A stretch of DNA of 64,000 nt from a virus, in IMG/VR virus record IMGVR_UViG_3300033233_000009, positions 1 through 64,000 of that record; one strand, written 5' to 3'. The notes beneath the pieces were generated by a model. It did not search any database. It worked only from the letters and a program-made list of their open reading frames with translations, and had not been told where the DNA came from. Made by a program: the position numbers and the translations under genes. Positions 17,478 through 27,990 of the stretch are shown here, one piece after another (the stretch's first letter is position 1; each line of letters starts with the position of its first letter).

Positions 17478-17999
17478 ATGGCCGACAACCTGGAACGACT
17501 GAACGCGGTGCTCACTGAAATCGAAGCGCACGCCGTCCGCCTGGCGCGGCAGGCGAAGCTGAACAGCGCGACGCCTGCGACGATCATGCAGGAGATCGCC
17601 GAGACGGTCATGCCCCTGCTCAAGGACTTCGCGATCCTGAGCTTCAAGGAGAGCGTCACGGTGCGCGAGTACCTCCACTCGGAAATCGAGCCGCTACTCC
17701 AGGAGGTGGCGGGCCAGGGCGACTCCGCGCTGCAACCGGAGGACGCTGCGATGATCATGCAGCGGCTGCTCGCGTACCGTTCGCTGCTCGACGGTGCGAA
17801 GGAGCGCGTCGTGGGCGACGAGAAGGCGAAGGTCGAGTCGGAGCTGGCCGAGCTGGACAGGGCGCTGGCGCGCGTCGCGGAGATCACCGTGGAAGAAGGG
17901 GAGGACGGCGAGGGGGAGGACGACGACGGGGAAGACGATGGAGGCGACGACGACGAGGAGGGCGGCGAGGACGAGAGCCCCGCCGCCGCCAAGCAGTGA
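17478..17999 (+). CDS. Helical protein with an acidic tail
   Basis: 173 aa; AAGGA RBS; D/E/G-rich C-terminus. Confidence 0.75.
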   Translation: MADNLERLNAVLTEIEAHAVRLARQAKLNSATPATIMQEIAETVMPLLKDFAILSFKESVTVREYLHSEIEPLLQEVAGQGDSALQPEDAAMIMQRLLAYRSLLDGAKERVVGDEKAKVESELAELDRALARVAEITVEEGEDGEGEDDDGEDDGGDDDEEGGEDESPAAAKQ

Positions 18000-20845
18000 G
18001 CGACCCTGAGGCCAGGGACGGCGCGCCGAAGGAACCGAAGCCGAAGCGCCCGATGAACGACGCGCAGCGCGCGGCGCTGGCGAAGGGCCAGGCCGCCCTG
18101 GCCGCCCGGCGTGCGGAGCGCAAGGCGAACGGCCTGGTGCAGACGACCTCGGCGGAGCTGCGAGAGGTGCGCGCCGCACGGGAGGCGCCGCCGACCGTCG
18201 CCGCCGCGCCGGAGCCCGAGCGCGACGATGACGATCCGCCGGAGTCCCGCCGCGGCGCCACGGTCACGCCGATCCGCACCATCGACGACGTGATCCGGCG
18301 CCACGCGGAGGACGAGCCGCCGCCCATCGAGCAGGTCGCGCGCGAGACGCGGCTCTACACGGTCGGGTCCGATCCGCTGCCGCCACCGGAGGACAACCCG
18401 TACCTGAACGACGGCGTGGTGGCATCGAGCGCAGGCGAGGTCGAGGATCTGGCCGGCGTGCAGCCGCCGAAGAACCTTGCGGACCTGATGAACCAGTGCC
18501 CGACGATCGGCGACGGGCAGTACTACATCGAAGTGATCCGGCGCGCGCCGCAGCAGTACGGCGGCGTGATCTGCAAGGGTACGCAGCGCCCGATCCAGCA
18601 GTACATGACCGATCGCGACTTCGTGAGCAGCTACGGAGGCGGCGACTACACGCTCGTTCTCTACGGCCCACCGAAGCGGGGCGGCGTCGTGGATCCGCGC
18701 ACGGGCCGCATGCGGCACAAGGCGCTGTCGCCGCCCGTGAAGATCGAAATCTCTCCCTCGGTGTACCCACCGAACCTCCAGGCGGCCGTGCTGCACGACG
18801 ACGAACAAGGCGAAAGTGAAGGCGACGACATGCGATACATTCAGCCAGGTTTCTCCCCGAGCGTGCCGATGCGACCTACCACGACGGCCGACGCGCGCAT
18901 GCTGGAGGTGCAGCTAGAGCACGAGGAAAAGATGCGGGCCCGCGAGGAGGCGAAGGAACGCGAGCTGCGCGAGCAGCAGGCCGGCGTGAGCGCCTCGCTC
19001 GGGCCGATGCTCGACGTCGTGCACCGCAACAGCATCGAGAGCGTGAAGGCGCTGGAGCGGCAGGCCGAGCACCGTGCACGCCAGGCCGAAGCGCAAGCCG
19101 AACGCGCCGAGGAGGAGAAGCGACGGGCCGAGGCCAGGGCCGAGCTGGCGCAGCGCGAGGCGCGGGAGCGCGAGGAGCGCGAGCGGAACCGCCCGACCGA
19201 CGCGGCCCAGATGGTGTCGAGCTTCGTGCAGATGGCGGAGGTGATGAAGCCGACCGACACCACGTCGGCTCCGTTGCTCGCCGCCGCGCAGGCGGAGGCC
19301 AAGGCGGCGAACCACGCGCTCGACCAGACGCGCCAGGAGATTCAGCGCCTCACGCAGCACCACAGCGCGGAGGTGCAGCGGATCCAGGACAAGGCCGCCG
19401 CGGATCTGAAGCGCGTGCAGGACGACTACCGCGAGGACGCGACCCGGCGCGCCGAGCAGGCGCGGAACGAAGCGGAGCGCCTCGACCGGCAGAACCGCGA
19501 CGAGATGAAGCGGCAGGAGGAGCGGCTGAAGGAGAACATCGAGCGGGCCGAGCGGCGCGCCGAGGATGCGGAGCGGAAGGCCGAGGCGCGCGTGCTGGAG
19601 GCCGAGACGCGCTCGGAGCGGCGCGTGCAGGAGGTGCGCGAGGAGATGCGGCGCGCGCTCGACGACCTGCGCGCGCAGAACCAGACCCGCCTCGACGACG
19701 AGCGCCGGCAGCACGACCGCGACATGAAGTCGCAGGCCGCGACCTACGAGACGCGGCTCGCCGGCCAGAAGGATATGTTCGAGAACCGGATCAGCACGGT
19801 CGGTCAGGAAATCGTCCGTCTCACGGCGGAGACCGAGCGCTGGCGCAAGGAGGCCGAGGACAACAAGGACATCGGCAAGCACATCGAGCGCGCGCAGGAA
19901 GCCGCCTCCGCGCTCGGGTGGGGCCCGTCGAACGGCGCGCCGGAGGGCCCGGAGCCGCCGCGTGACTGGAAGGAAATGATCGGTCGCATCGGGATGGATC
20001 TGGTGCAGAAGCTCCCGGAGATCGTCCAGTCCGCGGGCGAGACGGTCACGAAGATGCGCGGCACGCCGGGCCCGACGCCGGAGCAGGTGCAGGCGATGCA
20101 GTACCAGGCGATGATGGTCGGCGCGCAGAACACGATGGCGCGGCAGATGGCGGGCGTCGCGCCGACGGGACTCCCCCCGCCGCTCCGCGGGCGCGACGGC
20201 AGCGTCTTCCAGCCGACCGCGCTCCGGTTCGGGACGGAGGACGCTTCCGGGCCGCTGGACCCCGGGGCTCCGTCGCCGCGCCCGTCGTTCGATCAGTTCG
20301 GGATGGCTGCGCCGCCGCCCCCGCCGCCCCAGCAGGCGTACGCGCCGCCGGTCTACCAGCCGGGACCGGAGGCGTACGCGCCGCAGCAGACCTACCAACC
20401 GCAGGCTGCGCCGCCGCCGATGGCGCCGCAGCAGACGTACCAGCCACAAGCCGCGCCACCGATGCCGCCGCAGCAGACCTACCAGCCGCAGGCCGCGATG
20501 CCGCAGGCGCCGCAGCTACAGCAGCCGCCGGCTGCTCCGACGATGCAGGCGCCGCCGGGGTCGGTGCCCGCGGTGATCCCGCCGGAGATGATCGTCCAGT
20601 TCGCGCCGGTGCTGGAGCAGGCGCTGGCGTCCGGCGAGCCGGTGGAAAGCATCGCGCGCGAGCTGCTGCCACTCCTCGGTCGCGACAACCTGATCGCGGT
20701 CGTGCGCGGACTGAAGACGGAGCGCGTCGTGGCCGAGTTGCAGAAGGCCGGTATGAGCGCGAGCCCCCTGGTCCGCCGTCAGGGGCAGCAGTTCCTGCGT
20801 GACCTGTGGGCCGCTGCGAACGTGGTGCTCGGGCAGGGCGGATGA
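17996..20845 (+). CDS. Large coiled-coil protein with a Pro/Gln-rich repeat tail
   Basis: 949 aa; long E/R/A heptad region; PQQTYQPQAA repeats at about 20380-20500. Confidence 0.85.
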   Translation: MSDPEARDGAPKEPKPKRPMNDAQRAALAKGQAALAARRAERKANGLVQTTSAELREVRAAREAPPTVAAAPEPERDDDDPPESRRGATVTPIRTIDDVIRRHAEDEPPPIEQVARETRLYTVGSDPLPPPEDNPYLNDGVVASSAGEVEDLAGVQPPKNLADLMNQCPTIGDGQYYIEVIRRAPQQYGGVICKGTQRPIQQYMTDRDFVSSYGGGDYTLVLYGPPKRGGVVDPRTGRMRHKALSPPVKIEISPSVYPPNLQAAVLHDDEQGESEGDDMRYIQPGFSPSVPMRPTTTADARMLEVQLEHEEKMRAREEAKERELREQQAGVSASLGPMLDVVHRNSIESVKALERQAEHRARQAEAQAERAEEEKRRAEARAELAQREAREREERERNRPTDAAQMVSSFVQMAEVMKPTDTTSAPLLAAAQAEAKAANHALDQTRQEIQRLTQHHSAEVQRIQDKAAADLKRVQDDYREDATRRAEQARNEAERLDRQNRDEMKRQEERLKENIERAERRAEDAERKAEARVLEAETRSERRVQEVREEMRRALDDLRAQNQTRLDDERRQHDRDMKSQAATYETRLAGQKDMFENRISTVGQEIVRLTAETERWRKEAEDNKDIGKHIERAQEAASALGWGPSNGAPEGPEPPRDWKEMIGRIGMDLVQKLPEIVQSAGETVTKMRGTPGPTPEQVQAMQYQAMMVGAQNTMARQMAGVAPTGLPPPLRGRDGSVFQPTALRFGTEDASGPLDPGAPSPRPSFDQFGMAAPPPPPPQQAYAPPVYQPGPEAYAPQQTYQPQAAPPPMAPQQTYQPQAAPPMPPQQTYQPQAAMPQAPQLQQPPAAPTMQAPPGSVPAVIPPEMIVQFAPVLEQALASGEPVESIARELLPLLGRDNLIAVVRGLKTERVVAELQKAGMSASPLVRRQGQQFLRDLWAAANVVLGQGG

Positions 20846-21184: not shown

Positions 21185-21514
21185 ATGAATCGCAAGGAAC
21201 GACGCGCCGCCAAGGCACAGGACCGGGTGAACGGAAGCGGCGTGCCGCTGGTGCCGCTGGTGATGCTCGACCTGGCGTGCGCCGGCTCGATGTCGGAGCC
21301 CCGGCAGGAGTGCATGCGGCGCCTCACGGTGCCCATGCCGTTCGACCTGGAGGGCCTCCGCATGGAGGGGAACCGGTACGGCTGGTTCGTGACCGTCGTG
21401 ACGCCGCCCGGGACGAGCCCCCTGGCCGTGACCGTGCTCTGCCCGACCTGCGCCGAGGCCCTGATCCCCGAGCTGGCCGCTGTGGCCCGCCGGGTGCGGC
21501 CCGGCAGCGCCTAG
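21185..21514 (+). CDS. Hypothetical Zn-binding protein
   Basis: Start MNRKERRA; C...C and CPTC motifs. Confidence 0.65.
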   Translation: MNRKERRAAKAQDRVNGSGVPLVPLVMLDLACAGSMSEPRQECMRRLTVPMPFDLEGLRMEGNRYGWFVTVVTPPGTSPLAVTVLCPTCAEALIPELAAVARRVRPGSA

Positions 21515-21579
21515 CCCGGGGTTCTGGCCCCGGCGGTGGCAGCCTTGACGCCAGTGGCAGCATGTGCCAGGGTGGGGGC

Positions 21580-22138
21580 ATGACCGACGCCGAAGCGGAA
21601 CGCATGGTCGAGGAACTACGGGAGTCCGTCGAGACGACGCTGCGCGCGTTGCTCGTGCGGGCGCCGCGGACGACTCCGGCCTGCGTGGGGATCGTCGCGC
21701 GCGACGGCGTCGCCGCGCAGGTGAAGGCGACGAGCGCGGCGGGGTACGCCGCGGTCCCGATGCCGGCTGCCGAGGACCCGGGGCGACCGCTCTACGACGC
21801 GGTCGGTGCGGCACTGCGGCGACCGAGGACCGCGGATCAGGAGTGGATCGTGCTCGTGCACCACGACACGGCCGGCGTGCGCGTCGCGGTGCTCACGTTT
21901 GCGTTCGCGACCAAGGTGCGCCGGAGCCTCGCCGAGGTGCTCCCGGAGCCGCGTGCGGAGGACGAACGGCGCGCGGAGGAGCTGGGCAGCGCGCTGTTCA
22001 TGCCGGACCAGCAACTCGGCTCGGTGGGCGAGTGCGTGGAGCAGGTGGACGGCGCCATGCGCGCGTTCGCCGACATGGTCGCCGAGGGGCGCGCCCTGGG
22101 AGTCGCGCTGACGACGTACGGGCGCGGGATGATCAACT
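21580..22138 (+). pseudogene. 5' part of a viral gene interrupted by the IS1595 element
   Basis: MTDAEAERMV...GRGMIN joins in frame to 26114 once the element and one TSD copy are removed; promoter TTGACG-17-CAGGGT upstream. Confidence 0.8.
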
Positions 22139-22204
22139 GGCGATTATGCACTTAACAAATAGGCGACTTTGCAGCCGCGACGGAAATTCCGGCCCCCGCC
22201 AGCC

Positions 22205-22381
22205 CTACTTGCTCCGGTCGCCCTCGGGCTGACTGGCGCTCGCCGAGCGCTTCTTAGGCACCTTCTCACCACCCTTTGGTGGGACCGCCAAAGCCCGCCC
22301 CATCATGGCGTCGAAGTTCGACGAGTCCAAGTGGATGTCAGGCTCTCTCGCCTTCGATGCTGCCTTCGACTTCGGATTCAT
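22205..22381 (-). CDS. 58-aa IS passenger peptide (not in the ORF track)
   Basis: Manual translation MNPKSKAASKAREPDIHLDSSNFDAMMGRALAVPPKGG...; the ATG overlaps the toxin stop (ATGA). Confidence 0.5.
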   Translation of the reverse strand: MNPKSKAASKAREPDIHLDSSNFDAMMGRALAVPPKGGEKVPKKRSASASQPEGDRSK

Positions 22382-22656
22382 TTATACACGTCCTTTCTGT
22401 CGTCTATGTCGAGCACTATCACCTCGGTTGGTTTCTCTCGGACCACGTACAGGATGCGGTAGTCACCCGACCGTTCCCGGTAGATCGGTTCACCGGTCGC
22501 AGCGGTTTCACCGCACAGTTTTTTCGATCCGGGAGGGTGGGGGTCATGTTGCAGCGCCCTTGCCTTTCGTGTGACCTGTCTACGGAGTTTGTGCTGTTGG
22601 ATATTTGTCAGGTATTTCAGCGCCACCCTGGTGAACGCGAATCCGATAAGTGCCAT
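22378..22656 (-). CDS. RelE/ParE-family toxin
   Basis: FTRVALKYL...L..DPHPPGSKKL...YRERSGDYRILY.V....VIVLDIDDRKDVYK. Confidence 0.88.
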   Translation of the reverse strand: MALIGFAFTRVALKYLTNIQQHKLRRQVTRKARALQHDPHPPGSKKLCGETAATGEPIYRERSGDYRILYVVREKPTEVIVLDIDDRKDVYK

Positions 22657-22665
22657 CCGCGTTAC

Positions 22666-25086
22666 CTACAATTCCAACCGATTCAGCTCTTGTTCTAGTT
22701 CCTTTCCTCGCACGAGCTGGTCCTGGTCGCGCCCTATCTCGACGAGGCGCGTTCGCGCAACGCTAACATCATCCGCCTCTTCTGCGTTCGACAAAGCTAG
22801 GCGTTTTATTTGCTCGGCGTTTTCTATCGACAATCGCACCCGGCCCAGTAGTGCAGCGTTGGTTGGAAGTCGGAAGCGAGCGATACGGGAGGGGGTCACC
22901 TTCCGGCCGTAATTGAACCGCCAGCGCTCCATACGAGCTATGGCCGCTGCCACGTAGAGCAACGCCGGATCTGCTCCCTTCTTAGAGACCAGGATGAGCG
23001 CATCGTCGGCCACGCCGCATGGCCATTCTTGAACATGGGCTTCCCCGATGCTCCCGGTGCTGGGGACAGTAACAAACGGGGGCACTAGCAAGGCTTCAAA
23101 GTCGAAGAAGCCGTAACAACCATTGTCCGTACCGCTGGACGAAACGACCGGCACAAGTCCTGGGGCGAGCATACTCTTGTCATGCAGGGCTTTCGTTCCG
23201 TAACCGATATGGAAATAAGCCCCAATAGTGTCCGAAGCGTCGTCAAGCGCGCGGCTCCTCTTGGGGGCTGTTGGGATCAGTTCTTTGCGGGCGACAGCTC
23301 TTTCTAAGCGGCACAACTCGTGGGCATGTAAGGCGGCGAACGCTCCCTGACTCCGAGCTAGCCCTGCAACTTCTTCCTCGATCTGTGCCTCGGTGAAAAT
23401 CTCTGCTGGGATGTATGCGCCCGGTTCCCAGCCATCGTCATGCACAACAGTAGCCCACCCACAGTACCCCGGGATGACATCGTGATTGCGGTACGCTGCG
23501 AGTGTTTGCGTTAGTTGCTCCCCTGTCCTTGGCACACGCATGTTCTTCTTTCGCTTGAGTCCGTCGTTCTCGATTCGCGCGAAAAACACCTTCTTACCTG
23601 CCGGATGCGGCGTACCCTTCGTAAGAACTAGGATCGCCGGATACACCGATGCGTATGGTTGAAATAATTGGTCGGGCAGCTTGATTACGGCGGTGAGCGT
23701 ATGGTGTTTGAGGATGCCCTCGCGCCATGCCTGCTTCTGCTTCTTCACGGCGAGAGACCTAGGCACGATCATCGCGAGCGTGCCGCCGTGTTTGAGGCCC
23801 TCAAGAGCGCGCTCGACGAACCTCTCGGGCGGCGTGTCCGTTTTCTTATGAGGGAATGGCGGGTTCATCAGAACGACGTTGGCCTTGCCGACCGGGTAGT
23901 CCCCGGCCGTGAAGCAGTCGTCCTTGCGAATGCCCGTCGAACCGTCACCGCGCAAGATCATATTCGCGACGCACAGCGCGGCGGTCACCGGCTCTTGGTC
24001 GAACCCGATGAGGTTCTTCTTCACCATCGCGACCATCTGCACGCGCGAGAGTTTGTGCTCACGCACGACGCGATTCATGGAAGCGATGAGGAACCCTCCA
24101 GTGCCGCACGCAGGATCGAGAACTACGTCGTTCAGGCTGATATTCGTCAGGTCGGTCATAAACGCGGCGATGTGACGCGGCGTGAAATACTGACCGATGG
24201 TGTTCCCTCCTGTGTAATGGAAGAACGTCTCGTAGAGCTGGCCGAGGTAGTCGTGCTCGGCGGTGAGCACGGTTACGTTGAGGCGCTCCAAGATCGTCGT
24301 GATCCGACGCGCCTTGACGGCGAGCACGTCGTTCGCCTCGTCTACCCGTAGGCTCGCGGCGAGATCAGGCTTCCTCGCCTTCCAGAACGCCTTGCGGCAC
24401 GCCTCGTTTATGTCGCCGAGGATGTTCTCGGCGTCTCTGCGAATCGCGCCCTTCGACTGCCATAACGCCAACATTGTAGCGCCCACCACAGCGGGCCGCG
24501 CGGCGTCCGTAATCCCGGCTTCGCGAAGCAGACGGTTGATCTCGTCCGCCCGATCCGCGAGCACCTCGACGGGTGGGATCGACGGGCGCATTTCGGCGGT
24601 CGTGTTGGGCGCAAGAAGACGCTCCACGTCTTCGCGGTTTGGCATCCACGTAATCGGATTGCCGTCGTAGGTGACCGGAACCCACTTCTTGCCGTTCCAC
24701 TTGAATGCACGAACGGCGAAGTCGTCCTCAGACGTGCCCGCAACAGCGATGGCAATAGGAGTAGCGCCCGCATCGACCATCGCCATCCCGTAATCGCGGG
24801 TGACTTCCTTCTCGGCCAGCGCGAGACCAGCAAGCGTACCTTTGGCCTCGATCACCACAAGCGGTTGCAACGCGCGGTCAACGAGGATGGCTTCCGGTAG
24901 CCCTGCGCCCCCACCGCCAGACTTGCTCCGACCCTTGAAAATGTCGAGTAGGTGCGTGTGATCCTTGTACTCGTGTTGACGGAGCATCGCGCCGTTCGGC
25001 GGGCGGCGTGTGTCCCAACCTTGCGCTGCGAGTAGCTCCGTCAGGAGTACCTCTGTACGGACTTCAGCGACGCGCATGGGGCTCAT
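22666..25086 (-). CDS. Single-chain restriction-modification enzyme (nuclease-like domain + N6-adenine MTase + TRD; Type IIG/BcgI-like) with an antitoxin-like tail
   Basis: LPE...IEAK nuclease-like motif; GQYFTPRH, VLDPACGTGGFL, MNPPF; TRD-like PVVSSSGTDNG...RFNYGRK. Confidence 0.85.
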   Translation of the reverse strand: MSPMRVAEVRTEVLLTELLAAQGWDTRRPPNGAMLRQHEYKDHTHLLDIFKGRSKSGGGGAGLPEAILVDRALQPLVVIEAKGTLAGLALAEKEVTRDYGMAMVDAGATPIAIAVAGTSEDDFAVRAFKWNGKKWVPVTYDGNPITWMPNREDVERLLAPNTTAEMRPSIPPVEVLADRADEINRLLREAGITDAARPAVVGATMLALWQSKGAIRRDAENILGDINEACRKAFWKARKPDLAASLRVDEANDVLAVKARRITTILERLNVTVLTAEHDYLGQLYETFFHYTGGNTIGQYFTPRHIAAFMTDLTNISLNDVVLDPACGTGGFLIASMNRVVREHKLSRVQMVAMVKKNLIGFDQEPVTAALCVANMILRGDGSTGIRKDDCFTAGDYPVGKANVVLMNPPFPHKKTDTPPERFVERALEGLKHGGTLAMIVPRSLAVKKQKQAWREGILKHHTLTAVIKLPDQLFQPYASVYPAILVLTKGTPHPAGKKVFFARIENDGLKRKKNMRVPRTGEQLTQTLAAYRNHDVIPGYCGWATVVHDDGWEPGAYIPAEIFTEAQIEEEVAGLARSQGAFAALHAHELCRLERAVARKELIPTAPKRSRALDDASDTIGAYFHIGYGTKALHDKSMLAPGLVPVVSSSGTDNGCYGFFDFEALLVPPFVTVPSTGSIGEAHVQEWPCGVADDALILVSKKGADPALLYVAAAIARMERWRFNYGRKVTPSRIARFRLPTNAALLGRVRLSIENAEQIKRLALSNAEEADDVSVARTRLVEIGRDQDQLVRGKELEQELNRLEL

Positions 25087-26057
25087 TCCCCGCCCGCCTT
25101 CGGCGGCTTGAGCATGAGCCGCTTGCCTTCGATGAGTCGGATCGCTTCCACCGACCGTTCCCCGTCCGTGACCTTGCGGGTGTTGTACTTGAAGTCCAAC
25201 TCCGCGAAGTAGAGATCCGTGTGCTCGCGGCTGATGTTGTGGTGAGTCCCGTCGATGCTCCGCTTCGAGTTTCCGAAGAAGCCCTCCACTGTGTTCGTCG
25301 TCGCCTTGCGTCCTGTAGCCGCATCGTCCCGAGCGTACTCTTCCCGGCTGTGGTTCACCGTGTCATGGGACGCGAAGTCCTGGCCTACAGCCTTGTAGAC
25401 CGATGACTCGTCCGTGTTGAGGCGCGCGGTGCGAGCGATCTGCCTTCGGAGGAGCTTGCCCATCTCGTCTCCGTTGACCATCGTGGCGACCTGGGATCGG
25501 ACTCGGCCGCCGCGCTCGACGAGAGACACCACCGGAGTCTTGTTGCCGACGTAGCCGCGTCCCTTGCGCCGCACCTTGCCGCCCATGTACGTCTCGTCAG
25601 CTTCTACGGTCCCGTCGAGTTGGTCGTCTGGAAACGAATCCTTGAGGGCGTACCGGATGCGGTGACACATGAACAGAGCAGAGCGGTAGGAGCCAAGCTC
25701 AAGCTGGCGCTGAAGTTGGAGCGCTGACACCTGGGTCTTGGAGGCGCACATCATGTAGAAGGCGATCAGCCACTTGTTGAGCGGAATGTGAGAATCCTCA
25801 CAGACAGTGCCAACCGTGACCGTGAATTGCTGGGCGCAGGCGGCGCAGCGATACAGCCCTGCTCGAATCTTGGCTTTGGGGTTCGCGGTGATCTTGCTGA
25901 TGCACGCCTGATCGATGTTGCCGCAGTGGGGGCAGGACGGACCGTTCGGCCACCGGACCGACTCCATGTAGGCGCGAGCTGCCGCCTCAGTGGAAAACCG
26001 CTGACAGACGGAAATCAGTGTCAGGTCGCGGCCTTCCGGGTCCCAGTTCGTCGTCAT
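25083..26057 (-). CDS. IS1595-family (ISXO2-like) transposase
   Basis: Zn ribbon RWPNGPSCPHCG...CAAC; VEADETYMGG, LNTDE, TVNHS..EY, TNTVEGFF, Y.AE.DFKYN. Confidence 0.95.
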   Translation of the reverse strand: MTTNWDPEGRDLTLISVCQRFSTEAAARAYMESVRWPNGPSCPHCGNIDQACISKITANPKAKIRAGLYRCAACAQQFTVTVGTVCEDSHIPLNKWLIAFYMMCASKTQVSALQLQRQLELGSYRSALFMCHRIRYALKDSFPDDQLDGTVEADETYMGGKVRRKGRGYVGNKTPVVSLVERGGRVRSQVATMVNGDEMGKLLRRQIARTARLNTDESSVYKAVGQDFASHDTVNHSREEYARDDAATGRKATTNTVEGFFGNSKRSIDGTHHNISREHTDLYFAELDFKYNTRKVTDGERSVEAIRLIEGKRLMLKPPKAGGE

Positions 26058-26063
26058 CCGTCA

Positions 26064-26092
26064 AGAATAGGGGGCGGCGGGGTGTTTGTCAA
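26064..26092 (-). promoter_or_regulatory. Transposase promoter with its -35 inside the TIR; leaderless
   Basis: TTGACA-17-TATTCT, 6 nt before the ATG at 26057. Confidence 0.7.
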
Positions 26093-26113
26093 GTGCATAA
26101 TCGCCGATCAACT

Positions 26114-27144
26114 GGGTCGTGCAACGTGGTCCCCGTGCGCGCTGCGCGACACGCCAGTCGCTCATGCTGCGCACGCTGCTCGCATGGGGGTTCGAGGAGG
26201 AGGCGCGTTGGCTCCAGCACGTGGCGGCGGTCGCCGCGGATCTGGTGCTTCCGCCGCCGACCTCCGCGCAGAACACCGAGGTGCTCGGCATGAGCGCGGC
26301 GGTGCTGTTCGGGACGTTCGACCCGGACCTGCCGACCGAGGAGGCGTACGAGCAGGCGAGCCTCGCGGAGCACCTCTGCGACGCGGCGTTCCCGCACTTC
26401 CTGCGGGCCGGTCTGCTGGAGGTCGAGCTGGACGACCGGGGCCTGCGCGTGGTGCTGCCCGGCATCCAGAAGTTCCTGGGGGCGTGGCGCGAGGGCGCCT
26501 TCCCTCGCCTGGAGGTCTCCCACAAACTCGCCGCAGCGCTCTGCCTCACCGAGATACCGGACGCGGACACGCTGCACTCGCCCTGGCGGGCATGGTCGCT
26601 GCTCGTACCGAACGGGCTACTCGGGGACGCCCAGCCGCAGCGCGTGTGGTGCGTCGGCGCGGAGCCACGCTACCTCGTGAGCAAGACCGGCGCGGTCACG
26701 GGCTGGTCGGAGGAGCACGCGGGCGGCGCGGTCGCGGCGGACATGCTGCGCTCGCTCGTGCGCGGCGCGTGCGTCGTGCTGAGTGACCCCGAGCGGAAGC
26801 GTACGGAGGGCCGCTGGGGTACGCCTGCGGCGGCGCCGCACACGCGAGCGAAGCGCCCGACCGGCACGGCGCCCGAGGGCGCGCGCTACGTTCTCGCGCA
26901 GCCCGTCACGATCGACCTGCGCGACACCGTGACCGAGGCGATCACCGGCAAGCGACGCGGTGGAAGTCCCAAGGTGCAGTTCCTGGTGCGCGGGCACCTC
27001 ACCCATCAGGCGCACGGCCCGCGGCATTCGCTCCGCCGGGTGCAGTGGATCGAACCCTTCTGGAAGGGCGATCCCGCAGCCCGGGTGCTGCTCCGCGGCC
27101 ACCGCGTGCAGGACGCCGCGACGCCGGAAAAGCCCGGCACCTGA
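26114..27144 (+). pseudogene. 3' part of the IS-interrupted gene
   Basis: Continues (W)VVQRGPRARC...; the C-terminal motif VRGHLTHQAHGPRHSLRRVQWIEPFWKG is recalled from uncharacterised phage proteins. Confidence 0.8.
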
Positions 27145-27234: not shown

Positions 27235-27990
27235 ATGCCCTACGCCTCTCCCAAAGACCCCCGCCGCGTCGTCTCTCAGCATCGCTACAACACGAGCGAG
27301 AAGGGGCGCAAGGCCATGCTCGCGTGGCGCAACGCCCACCGCGGGCGACTTGCTCAGTATTACAGCACCGACAAAGCGAAGGAGTGGATGCGGACCTCGC
27401 GTCAACGGATGCAGGCGGACCCGGAGCGGAAGCGCAAGAACGCCGAGGCGCAGCGTCGGTACAACCAGAGCGAGAAGGGTCGTCTCGCTTTCAAGCGAAG
27501 GGAGGCGAGCAACCGAGTGAAGTTGGGGCTCGGGCCGCCACGGCAGAAGCTCAGTCCAGAGGAGAAGAAGCAACGCCGTAAGGAATCACTGTTACGCTAC
27601 CGCGAATCCGGCAAAGCCAAGGTGTGTCAGGATCGTTTCTACGCAACCGAGTACGGTAAGCAGGCCAGCCTGGTTCGCGTCGAGCGGCGCCGATGCCTGC
27701 TGATGAGCGTTGGCGGTACGTTCACGTCCGACGAGTGGCGCGCGATGCTCCGGGCCTTCGGTTATCGCTGCACCTACTGCGGATGCGGAGGCAAGATGAC
27801 GATCGACCACGTTGTTCCGATCAGCAGCAACGGGCGTCACGAGCGTGCGAACATCGTGCCCTCCTGCCTGCGCTGCAACATCAAGAAACACAAGCACGAC
27901 CTGGCAGTAGCCTGCGCCAGACTGACGATCGATCTGCCTGCCTTTAACCAGCGGCGCGCCGCTGGCCTCGCGCGACTGGATGCCGCATGA
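27235..27990 (+). CDS. HNH (homing-type) endonuclease
   Basis: Basic helical repeats, then CTYCG...TIDHVVP.....H...NIVPSCLRCNIKK. Confidence 0.88.
   Translation: MPYASPKDPRRVVSQHRYNTSEKGRKAMLAWRNAHRGRLAQYYSTDKAKEWMRTSRQRMQADPERKRKNAEAQRRYNQSEKGRLAFKRREASNRVKLGLGPPRQKLSPEEKKQRRKESLLRYRESGKAKVCQDRFYATEYGKQASLVRVERRRCLLMSVGGTFTSDEWRAMLRAFGYRCTYCGCGGKMTIDHVVPISSNGRHERANIVPSCLRCNIKKHKHDLAVACARLTIDLPAFNQRRAAGLARLDAA

Follow-up and report, generated by a model that had tools for sequence, protein, structure and literature searches.

In toxin-antitoxin systems of the RelBE type (E. coli RelBE, M. tuberculosis Rv2865/Rv2866, archaeal aRelBE), a RelE-family toxin is encoded in the same operon as its antidote, which lies immediately upstream. 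We describe here a locus of this kind in a 64,000-nt stretch of viral DNA, positions 1 to 64,000 of IMGVR_UViG_3300033233_000009, a virus record of 124.6 kb (the stretch is called the window below). A RelE-family toxin gene follows the gene of a restriction-modification (RM)-type enzyme, both inside an IS1595-family transposon, and very probably the two form a type II toxin-antitoxin pair whose antitoxin is the enzyme's own C-terminal tail and not a separate protein. The likeness to RelBE-type systems extends to this tail, which resembles antitoxin C-termini and is predicted to bind by a helix and an added strand. Unlike in those systems, the putative antitoxin has no DNA-binding domain of its own and makes up the last ~5% of an 806-aa enzyme (at other loci, the end of an HsdS subunit).

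In the type Ic system PrrC/EcoprrI, a translation-poisoning RNase is coupled to an RM enzyme that silences it, as described in the parts of PMC3506569 drawn on here. The toxin in the window differs in being a 92-aa RelE fold and not an ABC-ATPase-linked anticodon nuclease, and the coupling would run through a recognisable antitoxin-type tail that is carried on a transposon. The same parts of that article, which sets out the immunity/suicide coupling hypothesis (Makarova, Anantharaman, Aravind and Koonin 2012), note the absence of typical antitoxins in immunity loci. In contrast, what looks like a typical antitoxin neutralisation module is here physically fused to an immunity-type protein.

Integral toxin-antitoxin pairs of Tn3-family transposons have been proposed to stabilise invasion (Lima-Mendez et al. 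2020, PMC7157771, in the portion used here). Compared with these, the element in the window is of the IS1595 type, has an 8-bp target duplication and carries its putative antitoxin fused to the main passenger enzyme. The linear neutralisation motif Phd-C has been found to neutralise its toxin when placed on an unrelated SUMO carrier (Ernits et al. 2023, PMC10440598, likewise in part). That fusion was engineered, whereas the enzyme-borne fusion described here is natural and widespread. Our literature search returned no description of an antitoxin tail on an RM protein or of this set of IS1595 passengers; ISfinder, TnPedia, REBASE and supplements lay outside its scope.

Gene order and the putative toxin

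The open reading frame (ORF) listing of the window contains four consecutive minus-strand ORFs, which encode the transposase, the enzyme, the toxin and a small peptide. The positions of these genes and of the enzyme's domains are as follows:

22139..26105, minus strand: whole mobile element, an IS1595-family transposon of 3,967 bp with four co-oriented genes
25083..26057, minus strand: IS1595-family transposase, 324 aa, zinc ribbon and DDE domain (Pfam, NCBIfam)
22666..25086, minus strand: enzyme, 806 aa, a nuclease-like / N6-methyltransferase / specificity fusion (ORF, domain matches)
24592..25086, minus strand: enzyme residues 1-165, N-terminal nuclease-like domain (invariant E65, E80, K82)
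23392..24588, minus strand: enzyme residues 167-565, HsdM-like N6-adenine methyltransferase (Pfam, motifs, fold match)
22783..23391, minus strand: enzyme residues 566-768, single HsdS-like target-recognition domain with long flanking helices (structure model)
22669..22782, minus strand: enzyme residues 769-806, antitoxin-like tail (EEADDVSVARTRLVEIGRDQDQLVRGKELEQELNRLEL), predicted toxin-binding module (profile, complex model)
22378..22656, minus strand: RelE-family toxin, 92 aa (Pfam, PHROG, profile matches)
22205..22381, minus strand: conserved 58-aa peptide (ORF, conservation)

The enzyme's ATG overlaps the stop codon of the transposase gene (ATGA), and the start of the peptide ORF overlaps the toxin stop in the same way (ATGA). 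The 806-aa ORF ends in ...AEEADDVSVARTRLVEIGRDQDQLVRGKELEQELNRLEL, and its TAG is separated from the ATG of the toxin gene by a 9-nt spacer. No further ORF is listed between the enzyme gene and the toxin, hence there is no separate antitoxin gene at this position. A first-pass annotation of this DNA, made from the sequence by a model, had already claimed this absence, and it gave the coordinates, the tail sequence and the 9-nt gap correctly. It had missed that the whole arrangement is a mobile transposon.

The 92-aa protein matches the Pfam family ParE_toxin (PF05016, E 6.6e-6) and the PHROG 'RelE-like toxin' (1.3e-9). A profile built from 23 family members matches the solved structures of Rv2866 (3g5o_B, 1.8e-8) and E. 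coli RelE (4fxe_D, 1.9e-5), and also that of archaeal PHS013. Residues R60, R62, R67, R87, K88 and Y91 are invariant in these 23 sequences; by analogy with RelE, we take them to be the catalytic positions.

Tail, toxin and small peptide

By sequence comparison, the last ~38 residues of the enzyme (769-806) are an add-on. Many tail-less relatives in our genome collection (80 loci, the best 80 of 114 relatives) end in ...ASLxPYQ near residue 768, exactly where the tail starts. A hidden Markov model of the tail (threshold E <= 1e-3) found it in 115 of the 120 best enzyme homologues, so it is not a chance extension.

As a comparison set we used free-standing antitoxins whose genes precede those of distant toxin homologues in 401 sampled genomes. 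For the antitoxin profile, the 50 C-terminal residues of each of 10 Phd/YefM- and ribbon-helix-helix-type antitoxins were aligned, the locus of one unpublished genome being excluded. The tail profile aligned with it at an hhalign probability of 90.9% (E 1.1e-6, 44 columns), compared with at most 0.82% for 30 column shuffles and 0.21% for a reversed control. At the profile level, the tail is similar to the C-terminal segments by which free-standing RelE antitoxins bind their toxins. In the 124.6-kb virus record, the sole match of the tail profile was the enzyme's own tail. The profile of free-standing antitoxins had no match in that record; it missed the tail too, so its power is low.

A model of the tail in complex with the toxin, proposed as a check in the first-pass annotation, passed its controls. 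The input consisted of the toxin and the last 61 enzyme residues with an own alignment for each, in three runs and three controls. The interaction prediction score from aligned errors (ipSAE) was 0.67 in all three runs and 0.01 in the best control. Of 80 solved complexes, 58 reach the ipSAE mark, as do 2 of 110 mismatched pairs; this calibration holds only roughly here. The runs share at least 91% of their contacts, and the predicted local distance difference test (pLDDT) of the partners is at least 79. Binding is modelled as 1:1 between tail residues 769-806 and toxin residues 5-13, 25-33, 45-60, 67-71 and 80-87, with a helix on the toxin surface, a QLVRG strand beside the N-terminal strand of the toxin, and a final helix. 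What this model shows is a likeness to RelBE-type binding, not binding itself.

The tail also varies with the toxin among homologues, another check that had been suggested, and the co-occurrence holds in both directions. In the genome collection, 25 of the 80 loci carry a tail of the same type as in the window (type A), and in 23 of the 25 the distance from the enzyme stop to the toxin start is -4 to +8 nt. In one of the remaining loci (L011) an IS256-type transposase ORF has displaced the toxin; another (L019) has no toxin, apparently just an N-terminal remnant. A second tail, type B (EDAEDLADALIAIDDP...), occurs in 4 genome loci, together with a distinct 87-aa RelE-type toxin in 4/4. One locus with a toxin and a disrupted enzyme frame (L068) was set aside. 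No tail is found in 50 of the 80 loci, 8 of which are unassessable because of a contig end; a toxin-profile match (E <= 1) anywhere in the locus was seen in 0 of the 42 assessable ones.

The viral collection comprised 15 loci. Eleven carry the tail, 8 of them with an intact toxin, one with a truncated toxin (L084) and two lacking a toxin ORF (L086, L089); judged by eye, a remnant of the toxin N-terminus is present in L089 and perhaps in L086. The tail-less viral loci have a toxin in 0/4 cases, which brings the pooled count for both collections to 0 of 46 assessable tail-less loci. For the converse, we took the 80 best from a set of at least 496 metagenome loci that encode the toxin subfamily. 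The tail (E <= 1e-3) lies just upstream of the toxin in 73 of the 73 loci among these 80 that have at least 150 nt of upstream sequence.

Five exceptions were found, in which the toxin is missing, truncated or displaced and the tail-bearing gene stays open. An intact toxin without a tail was found at 0 of the loci assessed, L068 being set aside. A tail that outlives its toxin, and never the reverse, is the pattern expected of an antidote and a protein that is harmful when free. According to the first-pass annotation, its reading would fail if toxin-free homologues kept the same tail. We dropped the argument that tail-bearing loci lacking an intact toxin refute the link, since a truncated or displaced toxin or a toxin remnant is left in them (in L086 perhaps). 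As a separate observation, the IS256-type transposase ORF of L011 (L011:7503-8675) begins 99 nt past the enzyme stop and is followed by a shortened toxin ORF.

A tree of the enzyme core (L015, L040, L068 and L075 dropped; 5 rows unassessable for the toxin not counted) has 8 state changes of the tail and 7 of the toxin. Comparison of independent pairs on supported branches gives 6 pairs in which the toxin changes together with the tail, 0 with a change in the opposite direction and 1 with no change of the toxin (p 0.031).

Strict co-inheritance and translational linkage would also be seen for two subunits of one complex. The RelE-fold protein might accordingly have been domesticated into a harmless accessory subunit that sits on the tail and acts, for instance, in regulation or in the binding of nucleic acids. 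We regard this as quite improbable, because the RelE-type basic and Tyr residues are invariant in the 23 sequences, because decay in the five exceptions is one-sided, with no intact toxin lacking a tail, and because the interchangeable partners include a MazF-family toxin (see below).

Several results weigh against an antitoxin role of the tail. Compared with the sequences of solved structures, the tail profile gave no significant antitoxin (best E 0.96), and Pfam assigns the tail to no family; Pfam and NCBIfam searches with the tail alone, the last 64 and the last 244 residues likewise returned no family. A canonical type II antitoxin DNA-binding domain is absent from the enzyme in Pfam and NCBIfam searches of the whole protein and of its last 39, 64 and 244 residues; ribbon-helix-helix, Phd/YefM and helix-turn-helix types were sought in the 806-aa protein, with no match. 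What carries the tail is, instead, a DNA enzyme. The score of the complex model may reflect memory of solved RelBE complexes, and own alignments went into this model, so that its calibration is a rough one. Removal of the tail columns from the tree, by which L016 is also lost, changes the count of pairs to 5, 0 and 1 (p 0.0625), and the nominal significance is gone. The co-occurrence is also in part linkage, as tail and toxin share one mobile element.

Further points on the same side come from the enzyme model and from the 58-aa peptide. The monomer model runs the C-terminal helix on through residues 769-786 with good confidence (pLDDT about 80-90), and the tail may thus have a structural role within the enzyme. 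The peptide, which has an FDxxMxxAL..PP core and a Lys-rich end, is conserved with nearly all type A toxins (for example in L004, L013 and L018). It is a separate overlapping ORF in the window; at other loci it extends the toxin's C-terminal end in frame, giving toxin-peptide fusions of 137-148 aa in sphingomonad-type loci. An AlphaFold2 model of a natural toxin-peptide fusion had a mean pLDDT of 50.5 and is uninformative on whether the peptide folds back. From these observations one could argue that the tail is purely structural, an HsdS-type coiled-coil extension for dimerisation, and that the translationally coupled or fused peptide, or a host factor, neutralises the toxin.

It seems highly improbable that this is the case. 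A tail that only shaped the enzyme would hardly be missing from 50 of 80 genome and 4 of 15 viral relatives, be seen solely with a toxin or a toxin remnant (in L086 perhaps), and change its type when the toxin changes its type. The peptide gene is lacking from type B elements. In one of these (L031), the right-hand terminal repeat lies 4 nt past the toxin, which leaves the enzyme tail as the sole candidate antidote inside the element. Peptide-like small ORFs also stand at the end of the RelE-free relatives L059, L064 and L002, and in the 401-genome sample the peptide gave one clear match, the element itself, and two marginal ones (E 2.6e-4 and 8.4e-4). The peptide profile has weak matches to enzyme C-termini (E 0.011-0.25; L031, L061, L092), and our impression by eye is that a peptide-like motif occurs inside some of them. 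The first-pass annotation had named neutralisation by the peptide as what would speak against its own reading. The conservation of the peptide agrees with such a role; its absence from type B elements and its look-alikes in toxin-free relatives do not. We consider the peptide a part of the element and an unlikely antitoxin.

The earlier claim that the RM enzyme is itself the antitoxin is hence well supported in its core, by the two-way co-occurrence, the second cognate pair of tail and toxin, the profile likeness to antitoxin C-termini and the complex model. This does not extend to the trigger that had been proposed with it, to which we return below.

The IS1595-family transposon and its passenger enzyme

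The transposase matches DDE_Tnp_IS1595 (PF12762, 1.7e-34) and Zn_ribbon_IS1595 (PF12760, 2.1e-13) in Pfam and transpos_IS1595 (NF033547, 4.4e-53) in NCBIfam. Insertion sequences of the IS1595 family with passenger genes are known from ISfinder. The element shares with this family the type of transposase, short terminal inverted repeats and an 8-bp duplication. Its boundaries and the gene that it interrupts are located as follows:

22139..22159, no strand: terminal inverted repeat at the peptide-gene end (GGCGATTATGCACTTAACAAA), 21 nt
26085..26105, no strand: terminal inverted repeat at the transposase end, 21 nt
22131..22138, no strand: 8-bp target-site duplication GATCAACT, copy 1
26106..26113, no strand: 8-bp target-site duplication GATCAACT, copy 2
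21277..22138, plus strand: 5' part of the phage ORF that the element interrupts (in-frame test)
26114..27144, plus strand: 3' part of the same phage ORF (in-frame test, PHROG)

The inverted repeats are complementary at 20 of 21 positions (95%), and the GC content of the element is 60%, compared with 71% in the 5-kb flanks. Removal of the element and one copy of the duplication restores an uninterrupted phage ORF of 630 codons with no internal stop, the C-terminal part of which matches phrog_15934 (function unassigned in PHROG). The target duplication is perfect, which suggests that the insertion is recent. It is possible that the phage is defective.

Two further features of this part of the window should be mentioned. 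Just past the split phage ORF lies a second patch of lower GC content (about 63%) with the gene of a 251-aa HNH endonuclease (27235-27990, plus strand; phrog_2118, 6.9e-17). A 949-aa ORF (17996-20845, plus strand) has a long, charged, coiled-coil-like middle and Pro/Gln-rich repeats (PQQTYQPQAAPP...), and PHROG yields no match for it.

Elements with the same terminal repeats recur in other genomes, and an identical, locus-specific 8-bp duplication is present in 16 of the 23 loci that have both repeats and both flanks. These recurring repeats with locus-specific duplications indicate an active or recently active IS1595-family transposon. In most related loci, among them tail-less ones, the gene of the same transposase immediately precedes that of the enzyme. 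The enzyme is the constant passenger of the transposon, and the toxin and tail are additions in some lineages. Nearly identical elements were observed in two metagenome-assembled genomes (L007 and L008; Pontixanthobacter sp. and Erythrobacter sp.) with different 8-bp duplications, TTTTTAAG and AAACTTTC, which points to recent movement. Cultured carriers in the genome collection include, by record title, Erythrobacter cryptus DSM 12079, Variovorax paradoxus DS1452 and Thalassovita litoralis DSM 29506. PLSDB plasmids and GenBank phages, searched by blastn with the complete element, gave no match. In a tblastn search of plasmids, the enzyme found distant methyltransferases alone, and 0 of 15 records covered at least 80% of the query.

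The passenger itself contains a methyltransferase domain (N6_Mtase, PF02384, residues 277-546, E 7.4e-36) with DPACGTGGF and NPPF motifs that are conserved across the family alignment. PADLOC models matching the enzyme are those of type I methyltransferases and REase_MTase_IIG (3.2e-42). An AlphaFold2 model of the monomer (mean pLDDT 85.5, predicted template modelling score 0.77) aligns with the HsdM subunit 2okc_A (Z 31.9, root-mean-square deviation 4.1, 367 residues aligned), with BsaXI (8w2p_A) over model residues 2..535 (Z 28.9), with DrdV (7lvv_A) over residues 1..554 (Z 21.0) and with the fused M-S enzyme 7eew_A over residues 176..788. Residues 566-599 and those from 744 onward are helical in the model. 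Pfam finds no Methylase_S domain in the enzyme of the window; split relatives do have one.

The whole-chain alignments with BsaXI and DrdV take in the N-terminal nuclease-like domain, starting at residues 1-2; Pfam and NCBIfam detect no family in residues 1-169. E65, E80 and K82 of this domain are invariant in 34 family members and would fit a PD-(D/E)xK-type site. 'Restriction-modification-type enzyme' is a reasonable label for this protein, whose restriction activity is putative. Domain order and fold matches resemble those of the single-chain type IIG/IIB enzymes BsaXI, BpuSI, DrdV and MmeI; the enzyme in the window differs from these in having one predicted HsdS-type recognition domain, an antitoxin-like tail and a transposase alongside.

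Combined with the tail, this arrangement suggests how the pair might work. A linear neutralisation module of ~38 residues (769-806) would ride on the C-terminal helix of the single-chain enzyme and hold, 1:1, the RelE-family toxin made from the same operon 9 nt downstream. Translation order and coupling would deliver the antidote ahead of the toxin. If the element were lost, or if a nonsense mutation or frameshift arose anywhere in the 806 codons ahead of the tail, the antidote would be gone and an mRNA-cleaving toxin set free; any truncating mutation would have this effect because the antidote is the last segment translated. The passenger enzyme and the transposon would thereby become addictive and shielded against truncation, and a cell in which the enzyme gene is lost or truncated would probably be poisoned. 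A release of the toxin after proteolysis of the tail, or after attack on the enzyme during infection, would be a possible further consequence.

This last step is what the first-pass annotation had favoured as the trigger. In that case the complex of enzyme and toxin would be an abortive-infection sensor, and anti-restriction proteins or degradation of the enzyme would free the toxin and stop translation. Such a guard builds on the tail as antitoxin and differs in the trigger alone. The modelled tether of the toxin is the DNA-recognition end of an RM-type enzyme, there are solved structures of homologous methyltransferase cores bound to Ocr and ArdA (7eew, 2y7c, 7bto), and the concept has been proposed for immunity systems generally, with PrrC-EcoprrI as precedent (PMC3506569, in the parts drawn on here). 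However, nothing ties the tail to anti-restriction sensing, and PADLOC has no model for the toxin or the 58-aa peptide. The presence of the transposon at many unrelated sites fits selfish maintenance, and in the window the cassette sits in a phage genome where it interrupts a phage gene. A guard function appears rather unlikely to us. Since the cassette is a mobile one of the IS1595 family, addiction, or a lock on the integrity of the gene, is at least as likely as a phage guard.

Other pairings of enzyme ends with partner genes

The type A and type B pairs may not be the only ones. In L039, the gene of a PemK/MazF toxin (L039:7484-7861, Pfam 8.6e-30) overlaps the stop of a transposon-borne enzyme with a different C-terminal extension, which may be a third, independent pairing of tail and toxin. 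In three other loci, a DUF7689 gene follows the enzyme within 7 nt (L002:7623-8087, L032:7627-8076, L063:7623-8024; E 4e-31 to 3e-36). These enzymes have a distinct C-terminal domain of ~100 aa (...HPAYRRIMGMG...WLxWG...), and in L064 a DUF7689 part is fused to the enzyme. DUF7689 and this third type of C-terminal domain may be another partner pair.

Among the metagenome loci with at least 2,500 nt of upstream sequence, the tail is carried by a full-length single-chain enzyme in 31 of 40 and by shorter proteins in 9 of 40. Some of the shorter carriers are free-standing HsdS-like subunits encoded after a separate methyltransferase gene (with Methylase_S matches up to 3.3e-19). The pairing thus extends past the single-chain enzyme and, presumably, past the transposon. 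HsdS-like subunits of 300-523 aa that bear the tail and are followed by the same toxin subfamily were seen in L168, L169, L176, L193, L198, L208 and L209, with a methyltransferase-like stretch upstream wherever this was checked.

These pairings lead us to a broader and more tentative idea, which we consider possible, with the balance slightly against it. The C-terminal end of the HsdS-type module could be a general docking platform for interchangeable toxin-neutralising tails, by which RM genes become their own antitoxins. This platform would serve two or more RelE types and probably also partners of the MazF and DUF7689 families. The result would be un-losable passenger cassettes of IS1595-type transposons that spread into chromosomes and phages, and that might also bring about abortive infection as a fallback if the enzyme comes under attack.

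If the tail indeed acts as the antitoxin, the locus would be a concrete, sequence-defined case of the long-standing idea that immunity proteins silence associated suicide toxins. It would also reveal a new means by which a selfish element can guard a large passenger gene from loss and from every truncation, and a family of transposable defence-type cassettes that also reach phage genomes. For annotation, the hundreds of 'orphan' RelE toxins beside 'HsdM family methyltransferases' are probably not orphans.

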